Shown here piece by piece: positions 3,019 through 15,152 of a DNA stretch of 58,488 bases (the first letter of the stretch is position 1; every line of letters begins with the position of its first letter). The notes beneath the pieces were generated by a model. That model was given only the letters and a program-made list of their open reading frames with translations. It was not told the origin of the DNA and searched no databases. A program made the position numbers and the translations under genes. The stretch covers positions 1-58,488 of the forward strand of contig CAZNUA010000022.1 in NCBI GenBank assembly GCA_964576115.1, written 5' to 3'. The stretch is from an uncultured Gemmatimonadota bacterium. GTDB lineage: Bacteria; Blakebacterota; Blakebacteria; Blakebacterales; Blakebacteraceae.

Positions 3019-3447
3019 ATGCGATTCCCACTCTCACCGAAAGGCCGGTGGCGCCCTCTGGTCACGGCCCTGATCATCTTCGGTACCGCCGGGGCCATCG
3101 GTTGCGCCGCCGCGGCGCCGAACCTGAACCAGCCGCGCATCCGGAACAAACTCGACCTGCGCCTGCAGAACGCTCTGGGCGGCAGTACGGTCGGCGAAAC
3201 TCTCGGGGAATACATCCGGGTGCTGGTCAAACTCGAGAGCGACGGTACCGATGACGATCTCGCCCAGCTCAAGACGATCGGCGCTACCTCTCCCTTCACC
3301 GGCGCCATCACCACCATGACTCTCGAACCGGCCCGGGTCATCGACCTGGCGGTCCTGGACAGGGTCGTCTCCATCGAGCTCGAGTCACCGAACGCCCCCA
3401 AACCCAATCTGCCCCCACCCCCGCCTGCAGCAGGAGACATGTTGTGA
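3019..3447 (+). CDS. Small exported (probable lipo)protein resembling a subtilase prodomain
   Basis: AAGGAGG RBS before ATG 3019; hydrophobic leader ending AIGC; visible similarity to the prodomain of the downstream S8 protease; stop overlaps the S8 start. Confidence 0.7.
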   Translation: MRFPLSPKGRWRPLVTALIIFGTAGAIGCAAAAPNLNQPRIRNKLDLRLQNALGGSTVGETLGEYIRVLVKLESDGTDDDLAQLKTIGATSPFTGAITTMTLEPARVIDLAVLDRVVSIELESPNAPKPNLPPPPPAAGDML

Positions 3448-6374
3448 TGCGTCGCTTGCGTACCATGCCGTCGGCGGCTCTCGGATCGGTGTTCCTGGCC
3501 CTGCTTCTGGTCGCCGCCGCCCCGCAGGAACGTCCCGAACTGAACCGGCTCGATCCTTCCCTGAGTATGGCGCTGATGAAAATGCAGCCTCTCGAACAGA
3601 TCGGCCGTCCGGGAGAGATACCCCTCCTGGCCCGGAGCCTGGGTGTCTCTGAAGGTCCGCCTGGAGCCTCTGAACCATGGGTCGATGTGCTCATCCGCGG
3701 ACCGGGGGCGGAATCGGCGATCCGAATGGCCGGCGGGCTTCCGGGGAGTCGTCTGGGCGGCGTGACGACCGCCCGGCTGCCTCTGAGCCAGGTCGCCGGG
3801 GTGGCCGCCGCCGCCGGCATCCACTATGTGGAAGCGGCGGTCCGCTGCTACCCCACCCTGGAGGCAAGCGTGCCGGAGACGGGGGCCAATATGGTCCACG
3901 ACACCTACGGCGAAAAGGGTGCCGGGGTGCTCGTCGCCGTCTACGATACGGGGATCGACTTCACGCATCCCGATTTCATCAAGGCCGACGGGATGACCCG
4001 AATTGCGTTCCTCTGGGATCAGAGCGACAACAGCGGCACGGCCCCGACGGGGTACGCCTACGGATCGGAATGGACCGCGGCCCAGATCAACGACGAGATC
4101 GACGGTTCGCCGGTCGGGCTTGTTACCCAGCAGGACATCAACGGGCACGGAACCCACGTGGCCGGGATTGCCGCCGGGAACGGACGGGCGACCGGAAACG
4201 GAGTTGACGCCGGCACCTACACCGGCATGGCGCCCGAGGCCGATCTGCTCATCATCAAAGGCGGAGACAACAGTTTCTCTTCAGCCGACGTTCAGGACGG
4301 CGTGGCCTGGGCCGTTGCGAAAGCAGCCGCCCTCGGTCAGCCGGTGGTGATCAACCTGAGCCTCGGCGGTCACGGCTACGCCCACGACGGCACCTCTCTG
4401 TACGAGCAGGCTCTCAACAGCGCTTCGGGAGCGGGGAGCATTATCGTCGCTGCGGCCGGGAACGAAGCCGACGACCTGATCCACGGCCGGGCGACCGTCA
4501 ATGAGGTCCAGGCCGTTCCGAAAGACTCGATCGGGATCGAAATCAGCAGCTACACCCCGTCGAGCGGAACCGGGAACGACTACGTCAAGCTCGATATCTG
4601 GTACTCAGGCACGGCCGGTGTCAGGATGGTTGTACGCTCCCCCAACGGCCACGCCTACGGCCCTATCGATCCGGGCAATCTCTCCTTTACGAGCGATCAC
4701 GCCGACGGCCACATCTCAGCCGCCTCCTCGAGCGCCCCGAACGCCAACAACGGCGACAAGGAAGCGATCATCGCCATTGACGACCAGACGGCCGGTCAGG
4801 AACCGGTCGCGGGCACCTGGTGGGTCGTCTTCGAGCTGTTGAGCGGCGAGGAAGTGACCATCGACACCTGGATCTACGACAATACTCTCAACGGGACGAT
4901 TTCGGGAGGTACGGCCGATTACAGCATCGCCGTCCCGGCCTGTGCCGAAGAAGTCATCGCGGTGGGCTCTTACGTAAGCACGTGGGGCTGGACGGCCCTC
5001 AACGGCCTGGGATACTCCTACCTCGGTTCCTCGCGGTTGGGAGATTACAGCACTTTCTCGAGCTGGGGTCCCACCCGTGACGGCCGCACCAAGCCCGACA
5101 TCATGGCCCCCGGGCAGGGCATCTTCGCCGCCCTCTCGACTCAGATGTCGACCGCACCCGACAGCTCCCATATCGCCCCCGACGGCGTTCACCGCGTCAA
5201 CCAGGGTACCTCCCAGGCCGCCCCGCACGTGGCCGGGGCGGTGGCCCTGATGCTGGGCACGTCGGCCAGCCTGACCCCGACTCAGGTGCTCACCGCCCTG
5301 CAGAACGGAGCCGAGAGCGACAGCTACACCGGTACGGTTCCGAACAACACCTGGGGAGTGGGCAAACTCGACGCCCGCGAGTCATACGAACTGGCGACCG
5401 GAACCACGGATGCCACGCCCCCCGACGTCACCATCGGTTTGCTGCGCAATACCGTTCTGACCGAATACCTCGATCTCTACGTCTGGCCCCGTGAAACTCT
5501 CCCGGACATTCCGAGCCTCTGGGTATCGAGCACGAGCGGGGATGACACCCTGACCACCGAACTGATTTCCACCGAAGACGGTCCGCTCTACGTGGCTGAC
5601 TACCTGATCCCGGCGGCGGGGAACTACACCCTGAACGCCCTGGTCTTCGATGCCGCCGGCAACGACTCCATCCACACCCGGAACTTCTCGGCTGCCGGCG
5701 CAGGTCTGGGCGGAGGGATGCTGGTCAGCGCCGACGGGATCATGACCGCCACCTTCACATCGGGCGCCCTGGCGTCGGGCGGGTACGTGATCGCCACACC
5801 ATTCAGAACCCGTCCGGGGGAGACGATGGCGGCCGGAGTCGAAGAGGGACTCTCGCCGGCCTACCGGTTGATCCCCGAGGGAGCCTCGCTCGACCGTAAA
5901 GCCCGGCTCTCCTTCGCGTACGATCCCGCCCGCCTTGGCAGCGCGTCTCCGGAGGACCTGCGGATCTGCCGCTGGACCGGCGAAGCGTGGACAGCGGTCG
6001 AGAGCTGGACGGACACCGAGCGACGTCGGGTCGAGGCCTCGATCACCGAACTGGGCATCTATCAGCTCAGGATCGATGAAACGGTCGGGTTCGATCTGAG
6101 CTTCGGGCTCGAACAGAACTATCCCAACCCCTTCAACGGATCAACCCGGATACGCTACACCCTGGCCCGTTCCGCCGATGTGTCGATCACGATCCTCAAC
6201 GTGCGGGGGCAGCGGGTACGCACTCTGGTGGATCGTCACCAGAGCGCCGGCCGTCACATCGTGTCCTGGGACGGTCGCGGTGAGGGGGGTCGGGATCTGG
6301 CATCAGGGATCTACCTCGTCGTCATGAGAACCGACCGACAGGTCTTCACCCGTAAGGTGCTGTTGCTGCAGTAA
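3444..6374 (+). CDS. Secreted S8 (Csp-like) serine protease with inserted domain and C-terminal FlgD-Ig/T9SS-type sorting domain
   Basis: Catalytic motifs YDTGID, HGTHVAG and GTSQAAPHVAG; oxyanion AAGN; C-terminus LEQNYPNPFN...WDG....LASGIY...RKVLLLQ. Confidence 0.92.
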   Translation: MMRRLRTMPSAALGSVFLALLLVAAAPQERPELNRLDPSLSMALMKMQPLEQIGRPGEIPLLARSLGVSEGPPGASEPWVDVLIRGPGAESAIRMAGGLPGSRLGGVTTARLPLSQVAGVAAAAGIHYVEAAVRCYPTLEASVPETGANMVHDTYGEKGAGVLVAVYDTGIDFTHPDFIKADGMTRIAFLWDQSDNSGTAPTGYAYGSEWTAAQINDEIDGSPVGLVTQQDINGHGTHVAGIAAGNGRATGNGVDAGTYTGMAPEADLLIIKGGDNSFSSADVQDGVAWAVAKAAALGQPVVINLSLGGHGYAHDGTSLYEQALNSASGAGSIIVAAAGNEADDLIHGRATVNEVQAVPKDSIGIEISSYTPSSGTGNDYVKLDIWYSGTAGVRMVVRSPNGHAYGPIDPGNLSFTSDHADGHISAASSSAPNANNGDKEAIIAIDDQTAGQEPVAGTWWVVFELLSGEEVTIDTWIYDNTLNGTISGGTADYSIAVPACAEEVIAVGSYVSTWGWTALNGLGYSYLGSSRLGDYSTFSSWGPTRDGRTKPDIMAPGQGIFAALSTQMSTAPDSSHIAPDGVHRVNQGTSQAAPHVAGAVALMLGTSASLTPTQVLTALQNGAESDSYTGTVPNNTWGVGKLDARESYELATGTTDATPPDVTIGLLRNTVLTEYLDLYVWPRETLPDIPSLWVSSTSGDDTLTTELISTEDGPLYVADYLIPAAGNYTLNALVFDAAGNDSIHTRNFSAAGAGLGGGMLVSADGIMTATFTSGALASGGYVIATPFRTRPGETMAAGVEEGLSPAYRLIPEGASLDRKARLSFAYDPARLGSASPEDLRICRWTGEAWTAVESWTDTERRRVEASITELGIYQLRIDETVGFDLSFGLEQNYPNPFNGSTRIRYTLARSADVSITILNVRGQRVRTLVDRHQSAGRHIVSWDGRGEGGRDLASGIYLVVMRTDRQVFTRKVLLLQ

Positions 6375-7074: not shown

Positions 7075-7100
7075 CAGCGGGCATTGTGCACCGATGAAAA

Positions 7101-7126
7101 AAAGGGCCGGTTCAAACCGGCCCTTT
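7101..7126. terminator. Bidirectional intrinsic terminator between convergent genes
   Basis: AAAGGGCCGGT-TCAA-ACCGGCCCTTT perfect inverted repeat with an A-run on the left and a T-rich tail on the right. Confidence 0.8.
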
Positions 7127-7138
7127 CTGTTGGTGGGG

Positions 7139-8065
7139 CTACTGTCCGCGCATGGTCTCGAGCAGGAAAGCGATGTCCTCCGCCGTCATCCGTCGGGCCG
7201 CGGCCTTCATCACCTCGCCGAACCAGGCGATCTCCCAGTCGGCGACGGGGAAACCGACGTTGCGCTCCTCCTCGTTGAAGCAGTCTGCCACGACTGAACC
7301 GTCAGGATCGAGCACATAGAAAACAGGGATCCCGCCGTAGTCTCCGGCGTACCGCTGCTTGACTTCCATCCCCCCGACGGTCCGTGCCTGATCGATCTCG
7401 AGCACGATCAGGTCCTTGTCGATCACCGGGGCGACATCCTCACGTGCAAGCCAGGCTTCCAGCCGGCCGCACCAGCCTCACGTCGGCGCCCCGAAGGTCA
7501 GGAAGAGACGTTTATCCTCCCGCCCGGCCCGGTCGAGAGCGTTGGCCAGCAGCGCCTCGGCCTCCGGGTAGGGGGCCTGATGGGTTTCGAGGAAATCCAG
7601 AACCAGGGCTGGATCGTGGTGATCCCCCTCTTCGAGCGAGCCGGTATCCTGGTTGGCCAGCACACTTCCGTCAGCGGCAAGTACGGTCAGGTAAGGCACT
7701 CCGCTGCCCTGGATGTCGGCCCCGTAGCGTTCCACCAGGTCGAGGTGCTTGTCCCAGCGGCCGATGTCCACGGTTACAACCTCGTACTCGTAGAGAATTT
7801 TGCGGGCGATCGTACGATCGGTCCGGAACAGGTCGTGCAGTTTGATACACCAGCCGCACCAGTTCCCACCCCACTGGATAAGCACCCGTTTGTTCTTGCG
7901 GGCCGCAACAGCGAGCGCGGCGGCGATATCGGCTCCGGCATCGGCCGCCTCATCGTAGACCGGCAGCCGCTCGGGCGATGAGTCCTGCTGGGCCGTCAGA
8001 CCGGTCGGGCAGGCCAGAACCAGGGTGACGAGGGTCAGAATGGATACACGGACAGAGTGGTACAC
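7139..8065 (-). CDS. Exported tandem-thioredoxin protein, probable selenoprotein (CGWC domain + UGWC domain)
   Basis: Track ORFs 7478..8149 and 7139..7426 are in the same frame and separated only by TGA 7478-7480. Read-through gives FLTFGAPT-U-GWCGRLEAWL, aligning with domain 1 LIQWGGNW-C-GWCIKL. GTG start at 8065 after GGGAG; signal peptide; cis-Pro-like motifs GVP and GIP. Confidence 0.85.
7444..7472 (-). promoter_or_regulatory. Candidate bacterial SECIS element
   Basis: After the UGA: GUGC-GGCC-GGCU-[GGA]-AGCC-U-GGCU-U-GCAC hairpin. The apical loop starts with G 18 nt after the UGA. Confidence 0.65.
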
Positions 8066-8084
8066 GGCGGTCTCCCTTCCCGGT

Positions 8085-9257
8085 TCAGATCTTGATGAAG
8101 ATGCGACGCCGATAAAGTAGAGCCGCCACGGCCAGCCACAACAGTACATTTGCCATCGCGAAGGCGAGCGAACCGTTCATCTCCCCCGCCCAGGGGACGA
8201 AGAGGTGTCGGTAGAGCCAGCTGTAGAGCGAGAGGGGATCGCCGGCTGCAGCCCCGACCTGGATCCGGATCGCCAGCTTGACCACGAGACCCGACCCGAC
8301 GAAGAGAGCCAGCGGGTTGAGGCCGAAGAGGATGGCCGGCCGGGCCCAGCGGGTCAGCCCCCTGACCTCGATCAGCCAGTAGCAGATCGCCAGCAGTTCG
8401 AGCGCGGCGCCGGCCGTGTAGAGCACATACGAGCTGGTCCAGAGGGCTTTGTTGATGGGGAACACCAGACCCCAGACCGCCCCGGCAGCGATCCCCCCCC
8501 ACCCCAGGACGAACATCCGGTTCACGATTTCTTCCCGCGGTCGCCCCGAGGTCAGCAGGTGACCGGTCAGCACACCCGCCAGCACGGTCGCCACGGCGGG
8601 GATGGTACTGAGCAATCCCTCGGGATCGTAGAGAGCACGCCAGGTGTGACCCGCAAAAAGGGTGCGGTCGAGCCAGGCCGCCAGGTTTCCCTCCAGGCTC
8701 AGGTCCGCGGCTCCGTACCCGGGCACCGGAACCAGGGTCATCATCGCCCAGTAGACCAGCAGGAGACCCGCCGCGATCGCACCCTGAGTCCGCCGGCCGG
8801 TGTACAGGACGATCAGGGCGGCGGCGCCGTAGGCCAGGGCGATCCGCTGCAGGACCCCGAAATAACGCAAGGTGCCGAAATCGAAACGGGGAAAGGCGTT
8901 CAGGAACAGGCCGAGGGCGAAGATCAGCAGAGTGCGGCGCAGCACCTTGCGCTGCAGTTCGCGGCGACCGGCGCCCCGTTCGCGGTGCCGGGTGAACGAG
9001 AGGACGATCGCCACCCCGACGATGAACAGAAAGAAGGGGAAGACGAGGTCGGTGAGAGTGCAGCCGTGCCACTCGGCGTGCCGCAGGGGGGGATAGACGT
9101 ACGACCAGCTGCCCGGATTGTTGACCAGGATCATCCCCGCGATGGTCAAGCCCCGGAAGGCGTCGAGAGAGGCGAGCCGACCGGGGATGGGGGATAGAAC
9201 CGTGGAGCCGGGACCGGCCGGAGCAACTCCGGCCGGTCCAGACCCCGGATGATTCAC
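8085..9257 (-). CDS. Heparan-alpha-glucosaminide N-acetyltransferase-like (HGSNAT/DUF5009, NagX-like) membrane protein
   Basis: [59 protein letters not shown] and [12 protein letters not shown] motifs. Confidence 0.9.
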
Positions 9258-10240
9258 GCTCCCGGTTCCCTGTCGATGGTGTCGTATTTCGGGGGTTCGG
9301 GCGGCTTCGATTCCTTCAGGGCCTTGCCCGAGGCGGCGGGCAGATCCTGCAGGATCTCGGCGATACCGCCCAGCCCTCCGAGCAGGGCCGAGGCTTCGAA
9401 GGGCAGGAAGATCTTGGTGGCCTGGCCGTCGGCCATGGCCGTGAGGGCTTCCAGGTACTTGATCGTGATCAGGTCCTGGGTCGGATTGCCGTCGTGGATC
9501 GCCTCGTACACCTTGAGCACCGCCTCTGCCTCACCGTTGGCCACGGTGGTCAACTGGTAGCGGTCGGCGTCGGCGACCTTCTCTATCGCCATGGCCCGTC
9601 CCTCGGCTTCAAGGATGGCGGCCTGCTTCTGTCCCTCGGCCACCTTGATGGCGGCTTCCCGCTCCCCGTCGGCCTCGAGCACCACCGCCCGCCGGGTCCG
9701 CTCGGCCTTCATCTGGCGGTGCATGGCTTCCATCACGTCGGCGGGGGGCTCGATCCGCTGAATCTCGACCCGCACGACCCGCACTCCCCAGCGGTCGGTG
9801 GCATCATCGAGGATCTGACGCAGTTTGGTGTTGATCATCTCCCGGCTGGTCAGCGACTCATCCAGATCCAGATCTCCCACAATGTTACGCAGGTTTGTCT
9901 GGGCCAGCTTGGTGGCCGCGGCGTAGAAGTTGGCCACGTTGTAGAGCAGTTTGACCGGGTCGGTGGCCTCGTAGTAGACGATGGCATCCATCGTCACGGC
10001 CACGTTGTCCTCGGTGATCACCTCCTGGGGCGGCACGTCCACCACCTGCTCGCGCATGTCCACTTTGCGGATCTTCTCGATGAAGGGGATGATCAGCACC
10101 AGCCCCGAGTCCATGGTGCGCTGGTACTTGCCGAGCCGCTCCACGACACCTTTCTGGTAGGGGTAGACGATCTTGATCGAGTTCGCCACGAAGACGAACA
10201 GCACGATCGCCAGAACAATCATCACGTATACCGATTCCAT
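9254..10240 (-). CDS. SPFH/Band-7 (QmcA/stomatin-like) protein
   Basis: N-terminal TM helix; [42 protein letters not shown] motifs. Confidence 0.92.
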
Positions 10241-10304
10241 CCGTTTCCTCCTGTGCGGTTCCGGCCCGCGAGCACCGGCGCCCGCTGCCTGATGTCAGGG
10301 ATCC

Positions 10305-10793
10305 CTACTCGACGGCGTCGTCCTTGTCTTCGACTCTTTCCGGCGCATCTTCCCCCGCTTCGAGGGGACGCACGACCAACCGGGTTCCATCGACCTTTTC
10401 CACGACGGCCCAGGTGTCCTTCTCGATCACCGTTCTGTCCGAAGAATCGGCCCGCCACTCTTCGCGATCGACGCGCACCATGCCGGTCGCCGCAGCGGGA
10501 TCGATGGTCTCGATGACATACCCTTTCAGGCCGGTATAGCGCTCGGCCCCGACGCCGAAAGTGGTCGGACCGCGATGAACCGAGCGGGCGAACCTGCGGC
10601 TCCCCGCCCAGGCGATGGCGCTCACGACGAAGAAGACGATCCACTGCCAGAGGATGCTGCCGTTGAAGAGAGCCACGATGAACGCCGCCAGGGCACCGAT
10701 ACCGAATACGATCAGGAAGAACCCGACCGTGAGCATCTCGCCGATGAGCAGTATGGCGGCCAGGATCAGCCAGGCCCAGGTCATGATGTCCAT
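10305..10793 (-). CDS. nfeD: NfeD-family (short, YbbJ-like) membrane protein
   Basis: Three TM helices followed by an OB-fold (GMVRVDREEWRA...VEKVDGTRLVV); canonical position upstream of an SPFH gene. Confidence 0.88.
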   Translation of the reverse strand: MDIMTWAWLILAAILLIGEMLTVGFFLIVFGIGALAAFIVALFNGSILWQWIVFFVVSAIAWAGSRRFARSVHRGPTTFGVGAERYTGLKGYVIETIDPAAATGMVRVDREEWRADSSDRTVIEKDTWAVVEKVDGTRLVVRPLEAGEDAPERVEDKDDAVE

Positions 10794-10904: not shown

Positions 10905-12056
10905 TCATTGCAGGTTCGCCAGGTAGATCAGGGTACGTTCGGGCCACACCCGGATCCGCTCATGGCTGGTATTGTAGCCGAAGACCGGCTGTTCCATCAG
11001 GTAGTATGTGCCCTCATGCCAGGTCAGCGCCCGGACCGGGTAGTTGGCCGCAATCCGCCGCACGATCCGACCCGAGTCGGGATCGATCCAGGCGATCGCC
11101 TCGCGTCCGGCCACAACCAGGTACTCGCCGTCGAAGGTCAGCCCCCCGTAGCCGGTCTCCTCGGGCTCGAGCTCGCGCACGATCCGGCCCGTCACGGGAT
11201 CGACGGCGCTGATTTTCCGGCTGTGCAGTACCCAGAGCAGCCCCCCGGCCCAGGTGATGGCATGGGCACCGTAGTAGCGGTTGACCTTCATCTCCTCGGT
11301 CACGATCTCGCGTACCACTCGCCCCGAAGCCGGATCGATCACGAAGGTCGGCAGGCCCGCCGTCCAGCCGTACTGCATGGCATAGAGCCGGCGCCCGTCG
11401 GTGGCCAGACCCCGTACCGAGGAGGTCCCCACCGTCTCGGCCAGATCCAGGCTGTCCCGGACAGCCCAGCTCTCCCGATCGATCCGGTAGAGGGTGCCGG
11501 TCTGAGCCACCCAGAGATCGGGGCCGAGCACAACCAGGGCCGAGGGCACTTTCTCCGACGGCGCCGGCCGGGTTCGGATCGTCCCCGAATCCACGATCCG
11601 GTCGGGACGGGGATCAGGGACATCCCAGGCTTCTCCCTGCCGATACAGATCATAGCGGCGCCGGATTTCCTCGAGCCGCTCCAGGAACGGCCCGGGACGC
11701 TCATACCCGCTCCAGCGGTACACTTTCTCACGCTCGTCGCCGATGGCGATCAGGCTGGGCCAGGCGCTGACATTGAAGTAGCGGGCGACATCGGGGATGG
11801 AGTCCCGATCGACAGTGACCCAGTGGAACCGGCGCGAAGTCGCCGCGACCGCGGCGTCACTGAAGGTGGAATCCTCCAGCACGGTGCACCAGCTTCACCC
11901 GTGGTAGGTGAAGTAGAGCAGGACCGGCCGGCTGTCACGTTGCGAGCGGCTCATCGCCGCCTCGACACTCTCCTCCCAGACGATCTCGCGGGCACTGCAG
12001 GCCAGAGCGGTCAGTGCGATCGCTCCCAGAGCCAGTGTGCGTGAGGTTTTGCACAT
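10905..12056 (-). CDS. Lipoprotein with thioredoxin-like domain (U-S-W-C) fused to a beta-propeller; probable selenoprotein
   Basis: Track ORFs 11895..12260 and 10905..11882 are in frame across TGA 11895-11897: RPVLLYFTYHG-U-SWCTVLEDSTFSDAAV...FHWVTVDRD...FNVSAWPS. ATG at 12056; lipobox LAC; propeller repeats GLATDGRRLY, AITWAGGLLW, GLTFDGEYLV, ALTWHEGTYY. Confidence 0.82.
11855..11883 (-). promoter_or_regulatory. Candidate SECIS hairpin for the second UGA
   Basis: After the UGA: CGU-GCUGGAGG-[AUUCCA]-CCUUCAGU-G-ACG, or the alternative short stem UGGA-[GGAU]-UCCA with loop G at +21. Less canonical than the first candidate. Confidence 0.4.
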
Positions 12057-14090: not shown

Positions 14091-15152
14091 ATGGTTCCCC
14101 GTTCCCTGTATTCCGTCCGAGGGTTCATCGCGAACCGTCTCGCCGCCCGGGTCGGGATCGCGCTGCTCAGTACATCCTTCCTCCTGCCACCGACTCTGAT
14201 CTTCGCCCAGGCCGATCCGGGTCTGGCACACCTGAAGGCCGAGATCGAACGGCTGGCCGAGATCGCCGGCGGCGTAACGGGAGTGGGCATCATCCACCTA
14301 GAAACGGGGCGCCAGCTCTACCTTCATCCCGACGACCCCTTCCCGATGGCAAGCACCTACAAGGTTCCCATCGCCGTCCAGCTCTTCACCCTGATCGATA
14401 CGGGACAGAAAAACCTGGGTGACATGATCGAGATCCGGGCGGTCGATCTGCACCCGGGCAGCGGTACCCTGACCGAACTCTTCGATGATCCCGGGGTGAT
14501 TCTCTCGCTGCACAATCTCATCGAGCTGATGCTTCTGATCAGCGACAACTCGGCCACCGATATCTGCCTGCGCGAAGCCGGAGGCGGCAAGGCCGTCACC
14601 GACCGCATGCGTGCGCTCGGCCTGGAAGGAATCACCGTGAACCGCCCCACCGTCGAACTGATCGGTGACTGGATCGGCATCCACGACCTGCCCCCCGGTG
14701 GGGAGATCACGATCGAGGACTTCAACCACCTCTCCCGGCAGGTGGACGCAACCGAGCGCAGACGGGCGGGCGAGGCTTTCGATACCGACCCGCAGGATAC
14801 TGCCACCCCGCGCGACGCAGCCGCACTACTAACCCGGCTCTGGCGGGGCGAGCTGCTCTCGGCCGAGAGCACCGAACAGCTGCTCGACATCATGCGCCGC
14901 TGCATGACCGGACAGGCCCGCCTGCAGGGAATGCTTCCTCCGGGTACAGTCGTGCTGCACAAGACCGGTACCATCGGACGCACGACCAACGACATCGGTC
15001 TTGTCGAGCTGCCCGGTGAAGCAGGGCATGTGGTCGTGGCGGCCTTTGTGAAGGAATCCCCGCGTGAGGTCGAGGCCCGCGAGCATGCCATCGCCCAGAT
15101 CGCGCGGGCAGTGTACGATTATTTCCTTTTCAATCCTGACACGGAGTATTGA
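14091..15152 (+). CDS. Class A beta-lactamase-like serine hydrolase (exported)
   Basis: FPMASTYK (SxxK), ISDNSATD (SDN), HKTG and DTATP motifs; signal peptide; the omega-loop Glu appears replaced. Confidence 0.85.
   Translation: MVPRSLYSVRGFIANRLAARVGIALLSTSFLLPPTLIFAQADPGLAHLKAEIERLAEIAGGVTGVGIIHLETGRQLYLHPDDPFPMASTYKVPIAVQLFTLIDTGQKNLGDMIEIRAVDLHPGSGTLTELFDDPGVILSLHNLIELMLLISDNSATDICLREAGGGKAVTDRMRALGLEGITVNRPTVELIGDWIGIHDLPPGGEITIEDFNHLSRQVDATERRRAGEAFDTDPQDTATPRDAAALLTRLWRGELLSAESTEQLLDIMRRCMTGQARLQGMLPPGTVVLHKTGTIGRTTNDIGLVELPGEAGHVVVAAFVKESPREVEAREHAIAQIARAVYDYFLFNPDTEY

Follow-up and report, generated by a model that had tools for sequence, protein, structure and literature searches.

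An in-frame UGA that very probably encodes selenocysteine in an exported tandem-thioredoxin gene, and the Cys, Sec and dead-site forms of its family

INTRODUCTION

Does the TGA that divides an open frame in this DNA end a gene, or does it encode selenocysteine (Sec) within the active site of one longer protein? A first-pass annotation of the window (the whole stretch of 58,488 nucleotides analysed, to which all coordinates refer) had proposed an exported protein of two thioredoxin domains that gene callers would split, acting as a redox relay between one Cys and one Sec site. The Sec recoding, the export, the two domains and the split are supported by the analysis described here; the relay is not. 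The gene very probably encodes a single exported bacterial redox enzyme with a Sec-coding internal stop.

RESULTS

Anatomy of the gene

The gene reads along the minus strand from a GTG at 8065 to a TAG at 7139 and contains a sole in-frame TGA at 7480–7478, which is codon 196. Viewed with translation table 11 it becomes two open reading frames (ORFs) in one frame (7478–8149 and 7139–7426), the same pair that had been described in the first-pass annotation with the strand unstated. Reading through the TGA generates a product of 308 aa (P0002), comprising a hydrophobic leader followed by two thioredoxin-like domains. The QWGGNW-C-GWC segment of domain 1 aligns with TFGAPT-U-GWC of domain 2, the comparison that the first-pass annotation had used as an internal control; 36% of residues are identical across 98 aa (E = 3e-13). 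Starting from the 5′ side the features are:

8070–8080, minus strand: purine-rich stretch resembling a ribosome-binding site, GGGAAGGGAGA, seen in the sequence just 5′ of the GTG start
7139–8065, minus strand: whole gene, for the predicted 308-aa tandem Thioredoxin_7 selenoprotein P0002 (PF13899 match and AlphaFold model)
7991–8065, minus strand: signal-peptide-like N-terminus of about 25 aa, predicted for the Sec pathway, with probable cleavage after LTA
7574–7972, minus strand: thioredoxin domain 1, approximately residues 32–164 (fold match to 3fk8_A)
7858–7847, minus strand: CGWC of domain 1, residues 70–73; V-P follows at residues 123–124
7478–7480, minus strand: in-frame TGA, predicted Sec 196 and first residue of UGWC (homologue column and kin genomes)
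7443–7473, minus strand: candidate SECIS hairpin, apical loop (U)GGA(A), with GG at +18/+19 after the TGA
7142–7564, minus strand: thioredoxin domain 2, approximately residues 168–308 (fold matches at model range 168–294), with UGWC at 196–199 and I-P at 246–247; pN is well below pS after the TGA
7093–7128, minus strand: hairpin resembling an intrinsic terminator, with a U run; it sits 3′ of the TAG, not of the TGA

A start at ATG 8149 was rejected because it overlaps the upstream gene and the homologues start at the GTG position. Two close relatives, P0006 and P0046, also have 195 aa up to the TGA, which supports GTG 8065 over ATG 8149. The hairpin beyond the TAG folds with −25 kcal/mol (z = −4.9, 0 of 200 shuffles), and is not among the terminators listed by a consensus scan.

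On the minus strand between this gene and a second candidate selenoprotein gene (see below) lie NfeD-like, SPFH/Band 7 and NagX/HGSNAT-like genes (8085–10793). Together with both candidate genes, which are on the same strand, they possibly form one transcript. The gene neighbourhood is conserved with close kin and not beyond them, and points to no redox partner or substrate. Elsewhere in the window the plus strand carries a class A beta-lactamase-family gene (14091–15152, PF13354) and a subtilase with a C-terminal FlgD-Ig/sorting-like domain (3444–6374).

Fold and export

P0002 belongs to PF13899 (Thioredoxin_7), which it matches in two stretches with 78.2 bits (cut-off 27). PF13098 is matched by the whole protein with 31.3 bits (cut-off 27) and by no single stretch over the cut-off, and, as regards the TlpA-like domain (cd02966) of the UxxC ‘thiol-disulfide isomerase-like’ selenoproteins, there is no match to Redoxin or AhpC-TSA at E ≤0.001. 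The AlphaFold model comprises two thioredoxin folds (pLDDT 93.1, pTM 0.85). Domain 1 superimposes on Xylella 3fk8_A with Z = 20.0 and an rmsd of 1.8 for 128 of 131 residues; further fold matches are the DsbD C-terminal domain (6dnu, Z = 12.1) and DsbH (2ju5, Z = 11.6). C70 and C73 are unchanged in all of the best 120 homologues, and a valine precedes the cis-Pro position of domain 1 in 100 of the 116 that are full length.

The leader has a hydrophobicity of 2.82 over an 11-residue window, and 113 of the 116 full-length homologues reach 1.8 or more. A twin-arginine (TAT) motif is found in none of the 116. Judged from the leader, and with the cleavage site as predicted, export to the periplasm through the Sec translocon is highly probable. 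A lipoprotein signal at VLAC is less likely, since that Cys is absent from the N-termini of close homologues.

Evidence that codon 196 encodes Sec

Among the best 120 homologues Cys occupies column 196 in 116, while the remaining four end exactly there. One of these four is the database record of the window itself, in which the gene is stored as a 195-aa protein (P0003) ending in FGAPT; gene callers have therefore split the gene as had been foreseen, and the homologues have either Cys or an end at this column rather than all terminating. At the DNA level the codons are TGA, TGC and TGT. In a search of 61 genomes the gene contains one TGA in five genomes of three genera (G000, that of the window, to G004) and TGC at the same codon in G008 and G009, from the same order as G000; there was no match in G005 and a weak one in G006. 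The nearest titled records of the gene are labelled Gemmatimonadota.

Purifying selection continues downstream of the TGA. Over 15 pairs pN is 0.08–0.27 compared with a pS of 0.38–0.77, as is the case upstream, and among six close genes the protein identity after the TGA is 61–84%.

The search for selA, selB, selC and selD called for in the first-pass annotation located all of them in the genome over their cut-offs, the tRNA-Sec having the anticodon TCA, and selA is present in all nine kin genomes. The SelD of the genome is a Cys form. Its locus (L009, G000:C45 near 1973–2665) contains an N gap within the assembly, and SelD there seems to be fused behind a cysteine-desulfurase-like region in an open frame of 918 aa. 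RF2 is present over its cut-off, and long frames end most often in TGA (2772 of 4031, a count that includes non-gene frames); there is accordingly no general recoding of TGA.

In three sequencing runs a single contig spans the full stretch without any differing letter, and no Cys codon is seen in place of the TGA. These runs may be the source of the DNA and thus are not independent confirmation; the case against a sequencing error is made more strongly by the kin genomes, which keep the TGA. On these comparisons UGA196 is almost certainly recoded as Sec. That it is instead a true stop (in a split gene, a pseudogene or an assembly error), or is read as Cys or Trp through a changed code, is very improbable: the databases do hold the 195-aa protein and a GTG-started ORF of 95 aa lies downstream, but the same codon stands at the catalytic column in the five genomes of three genera and in at least 61 distinct loci, GWC or GYC is kept directly after it with purifying selection beyond, a restarted ORF would lack an active site, RF2 is present and the contigs of the runs agree on every letter.

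The candidate SECIS hairpin

The first-pass annotation had noted a hairpin after the TGA, and its loop GGA indeed begins at +18, a spacing of 17 nt from the TGA. The consensus for bacterial SECIS (bSECIS) elements has a loop of 3–9 nt with G in the first two places, a distance of 16–37 nt from the UGA, a stem of at least 4 bp and an MFE of −7.5 or below (PMC13188914, Figure 2). With its GGA loop, spacing of 17, upper stem of 4 bp and −17.2 kcal/mol the hairpin of the gene lies within these limits, as scored by our own implementation of that published model rather than by bSECISearch. All seven TGA genes pass the generic model, but so do 27 of the 55 Cys homologues, 92 of the 300 TGA stops that served as background, and 130 of the 200 synonymous shuffles made from the gene. 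It is too permissive at 64% GC, and the fit was rejected as proof of recoding. The folding of windows of 58–101 nt after the TGA gives z-scores that are not significant (z = 0.61 for 71 nt); the 31-nt hairpin has z = −2.35, with ends that were picked after the fact.

Better support than the generic model comes from the position of the loop GG in other candidate selenoprotein genes of the lineage, two of which have it at the same +18/19 place. The first (C58:13111) forms a perfect 7-bp stem with the loop UGGA at +17–20 in three genomes. In the second (C40:21084) and three orthologues the loop GG at +18/19 is presented on differing stem sequences; a fifth copy (L301) was missed by the hairpin pattern. 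Synonymous differences in codons 4–11 after the TGA number 6 of 37, compared with 54 of 117 and 67 of 128 in the codons beyond, counted over four genes whose pairs are not independent. The GG at +18/19 is missing in two kin genes, which have UG instead, and in the second candidate gene of the window it is folded into a stem.

The wider family was represented by 131 distinct loci, 61 Sec and 70 Cys, the Sec ones coming partly from the metagenome matches listed (see below). Among these, the hairpin register of the gene itself occurs in 16 of the 61 Sec and 1 of the 70 Cys genes, a loop at +23–26 in 35 and none respectively, and any of three registers in 59 and 5; the registers were drawn up with the data already in view, and kin do not count as independent. 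A near-invariant in-frame hairpin with its loop at +23–26, which encodes LEEFL, is found in Sec loci of the L131/L156/L259 type, and its pair 22–27 is changed on both sides in 2 of 35. The family also points to the SECIS forms of poorly studied phyla, in which the peptide seems to have been moulded by the hairpin that its codons form: LEEFL is encoded in 29 of the 61 Sec genes and lies outside the eight commonest peptides of the 70 Cys genes.

Cys, Sec and dead-site forms of the family

A metagenome scan for DNA of the pattern APW/T-TGA-GWC returned at least 120 stretches. Of the 80 matches listed 51 are family members with TGA at the domain 2 site; one has the gene of the window exactly, and one looks like a duplicate. 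Among the 61 distinct Sec loci listed, domain 1 retains a CxxC in 17, lacks it in 35 and is incomplete in five. Four carry a second Sec: two are UGWC plus UGWC proteins, and in two a TlpA-like UGPC takes the place of domain 1. L152 and L205 are the double-Sec UGWC members, and a TlpA-like UGPC fused to a UGWC domain is found in L138, L148, L181, L210 and L276. Single-domain relatives also occur (L115–L130); L123, from Verrucomicrobia, is a single-domain UGWC member.

Three samples with less bias lean the same way. In a large subfamily domain 1 has lost its CxxC (is dead), and the proteins nearest to a query from it are stored in truncated form. A query of this type, scored on its N-terminal part, gave a best 120 that are all short proteins, 119 of them ending in APW. 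Most are named ‘hypothetical protein’ and the stored fragment lacks the usual CxxC; the few that carry a name are Acidobacteria. The same search with domain 1 of the gene gave a best 120 comprising 96 with Cys, 21 ending at the site and three of other build.

Among 301 Planctomycetota genomes the family is present in 34, and 30 of the 36 matches were examined. Cys and TGA loci number 13 and 5 where domain 1 is intact, and 3 (one of them read by eye) and 8 where it is dead; one further locus is a TlpA fusion with TGA. Clustering at 50% identity gave 150 representatives, from which 17 partial rows were dropped and of which 17 are of other build. Those with an intact domain 1 comprise 58 with Cys and 12 ending at the site, compared with 19 and 27 for a dead domain 1. 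Of the 133 representatives that could be classified, 46 thus lack the domain 1 CxxC but keep the domain 2 site. Twelve have an intact domain 1 and something other than CxxC at the domain 2 position; domain 2 is therefore not always the site that is kept. Loss of the domain 1 CxxC goes mostly with Sec-bearing relatives, but as an association with no order of events, because an end at this position only stands in for TGA, the profile derives from Sec genes and related loci do not count independently.

That Sec arose more than once in the family is not shown by the trees, which are quick, have few columns and leave out 4 of 131 rows, those 4 having a short domain 2. The tree needs 9–10 label changes of which strongly supported branches force only one, and in an AU test a single Sec clade is not rejected (P = 0.43).

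In Planctomycetota selA is present in all 15 TGA carriers and in 15 of 16 Cys carriers. Since the background is 221 of 301 genomes and the Cys carriers nearly all have it, co-occurrence with the Sec machinery is weak as a discriminating test. Family carriers have selB in 29 of 31 and tRNA-Sec in 31 of 33. In the small genome G062, which carries a TGA, selA was not found, selB is over its cut-off and tRNA-Sec only just so. Taken by itself, 221 of 301 means that apparent users of Sec are frequent for this phylum.

Other candidate selenoproteins

A codon-usage scan of the genome passed 104 of 32378 TGA sites through a coding filter, six of them with a Cys motif, and yielded other thioredoxin-fold candidates in which the TGA is conserved in kin. 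The second candidate of the window (10905–12056, minus strand, TGA at 11897–11895) combines a Cys-containing leader, a thioredoxin-like domain with YFTYHG-U-SWC and a C-terminal part that resembles a propeller. Its TGA is kept in G001, G002, G003, G006 and G008, and it is near the tandem thioredoxin gene in G001 and G003 also. L281 (G000:C58:12955–14262, plus strand) comprises a Thioredoxin_7 domain (TKTY-U-PHC) and HEAT-like repeats; both the TGA and the perfect 7-bp hairpin are kept in G001 and G002. L283 (G000:C40:20610–21389, plus strand) has a fibronectin-III and an AhpC/TSA domain. This copy has no second Cys (NTDT-U-LPS) whereas its orthologues are U-xx-C, and there is one TGA in all five matching genomes. 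A further candidate with FAYT-U-KEC (L282, G000:C1 near 75472, minus strand) has a TlpA-like context after a carboxypeptidase-regulatory-like domain.

DISCUSSION

Relation to known proteins

Among the closest described selenoprotein families is the PF13098 ‘Thiol:disulfide interchange protein’, a UxxC family with one Sec represented by WP_011366075.1 (PMC13188914, Table 1), with UxxC members in Geobacter and Syntrophus (PMC1794560). It has in common with the gene a thioredoxin fold, the UxxC motif (here UGWC) and one Sec. From the catalogue description the gene is set apart by its best match to PF13899 and its two domains. Table 1 of that 2026 catalogue of 119 prokaryotic selenoprotein families includes several UxxC thioredoxin-fold families, and the tandem Cys plus Sec form of Thioredoxin_7 is not among its entries (PMC13188914). 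Two ‘thiol-disulfide isomerase-like thioredoxin’ Sec candidates were tabulated in 2016 for Planctomycete P1, each split into two IMG genes as the present gene is split, with a Cys homologue of Singulisphaera acidiphila as their closest match (PMC4807772, Table S9). They occupy two rows of that table, are marked ‘SECIS: no’ and come with neither a sequence nor an account of their architecture or family. Singulisphaera acidiphila has a full-length Cys member of our family (L085), and compared by description the Planctomycete P1 candidates may be members too. BSepDB may hold family members under a broader name (PMC13326102). A literature search, with subscription journals mostly outside its reach, found no description of the tandem family.

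No NCBIfam model is over its cut-off for P0002 or the relatives tried. TsoB (NF045694) gives 30.8 bits with P0002 (cut-off 805) and DsbH (NF043050) 27.5 bits (cut-off 190); NF041199 (Trx7/PDZ) has no match with it at E ≤0.01, there is no PDZ match, and a relative scores 19.6 (cut-off 300). The TsoB and Trx7/PDZ models share a thioredoxin-7/DsbD-gamma-like domain with the gene but differ in their motifs (UxxxxU and CxxU, compared with UxxC here) and partner domains, TsoB being a rhodanese/DsbD fusion. Domain by domain the modelled product has the fold of 3fk8, DsbD gamma and Chlamydia DsbH (2ju5), but these are single-domain, Cys-only proteins. Eukaryotic PDI is similar in working principle only, as exported tandem thioredoxin domains of which one may lose its CxxC; PDI itself has non-catalytic thioredoxin domains. 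The domain arrangement is different (Foldseek TM 0.20–0.30, rmsd 8–17).

A proposed function

We slightly favour a periplasmic disulfide reductase or isomerase that receives its electrons from DsbD and catalyses mainly at the Sec site. The hairpin with GG at +18/19 would guide SelB–tRNA(Sec) so that Sec is inserted at UGA196, and the UGWC site of domain 2 would thus stand beside the CGWC of domain 1 in one exported chain. The protein would then work like DsbH, DsbD-gamma or DsbC. DsbD, for which the genome has a gene (G000:C28), would keep the tandem thioredoxin reduced, and this in turn would reduce, reshuffle or repair the cysteines of exported proteins. Sec in the first position of UxxC is a more reactive nucleophile. 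Catalysis would proceed mainly at the Sec site, with the CGWC and UGWC sites acting largely independently. Fold and motif fix neither redox direction nor substrate; the reducing direction, DsbD as the donor and the nature of the substrates are suggested by likeness to DsbD-gamma and DsbH, and we regard them as somewhat better than evenly probable. DsbH is described as a reducing periplasmic oxidoreductase (PMC5193440).

It is rather unlikely that the selenoprotein is not a DsbD-fed reductase. It might then be an oxidase or foldase, or supply reductant to a dedicated partner such as a peroxiredoxin, methionine sulfoxide reductase, cytochrome c maturation or selenium/sulfur compounds. The valine before the cis-Pro of domain 1 (100 of 116) is as found in DsbA-type proteins (PMC5193440), relatives include TlpA-like UxxC fusions and long N-terminal extensions, and 30 of 31 Planctomycetota carrier genomes have selA. 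Yet the helical insertion of DsbA is absent and the closest domains are of the DsbD-gamma/DsbH type; the selA background is already 221 of 301, and no conserved partner gene lies nearby.

The gene could also make two products depending upon selenium, which is compatible with the DsbD-fed reductase but improbable in our estimation. Termination at the UGA would give a working Cys thioredoxin of one domain (the signal peptide, domain 1 in full and 31 extra residues) and read-through the Cys/Sec enzyme. Domain 1 (residues 32–164) is indeed a complete fold upstream of the TGA, single-domain relatives occur and RF2 is present. Against this, 35 of the 61 Sec relatives listed lack the domain 1 CxxC, so the short product of most of them would have no active site, and the leftover piece of domain 2 may cause degradation.

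Slightly less probable still is the obligate relay proposed at the outset, in which electrons pass between CGWC and UGWC of one chain. Both sites are kept in all five family genomes and in the 116 full-length homologues, and the two-domain arrangement is predicted with confidence (pTM 0.85). Many relatives nevertheless keep only the domain 2 site and a few have no domain 2 CxxC: the domain 1 CxxC is lost in a large subfamily, in 11 of the 30 Planctomycetota loci and in the 46 of 133 representatives, all-Cys versions are common, and there are the single-domain relatives. As either site can be missing, an obligate inter-domain relay is unlikely.

Significance of the family

UxxC selenoproteins with a thioredoxin fold are a well-known class, and the recoding is in itself unsurprising. 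The value of the finding is more in the size of the family and its Cys, Sec and dead-site variety than in the single gene. The family is widespread, and its Sec members are very probably cut off at the TGA in databases, where many are stored as fragments ending at APW.

More tentatively, Planctomycetota, Acidobacteriota and Gemmatimonadota-like bacteria may share a large family, so far absent from catalogues, of exported selenoproteins with tandem thioredoxin domains, in which a Sec gained in domain 2 would have made that site so efficient that the domain 1 cysteines could be dispensed with. Cys/Cys, Cys/Sec, Sec/Sec, dead/Cys and dead/Sec combinations would have been sampled on one scaffold, domain 1 would have become a binding domain and the present gene would represent an intermediate state. 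The UGA could in addition be a selenium switch between a one-domain Cys and a two-domain Cys/Sec enzyme. Since its Cys/Cys, Cys/Sec, Sec/Sec and dead/Sec forms are built on a common scaffold, the family offers naturally occurring material for a long-standing problem, the advantage of Sec over Cys, in this case within the cell envelope.
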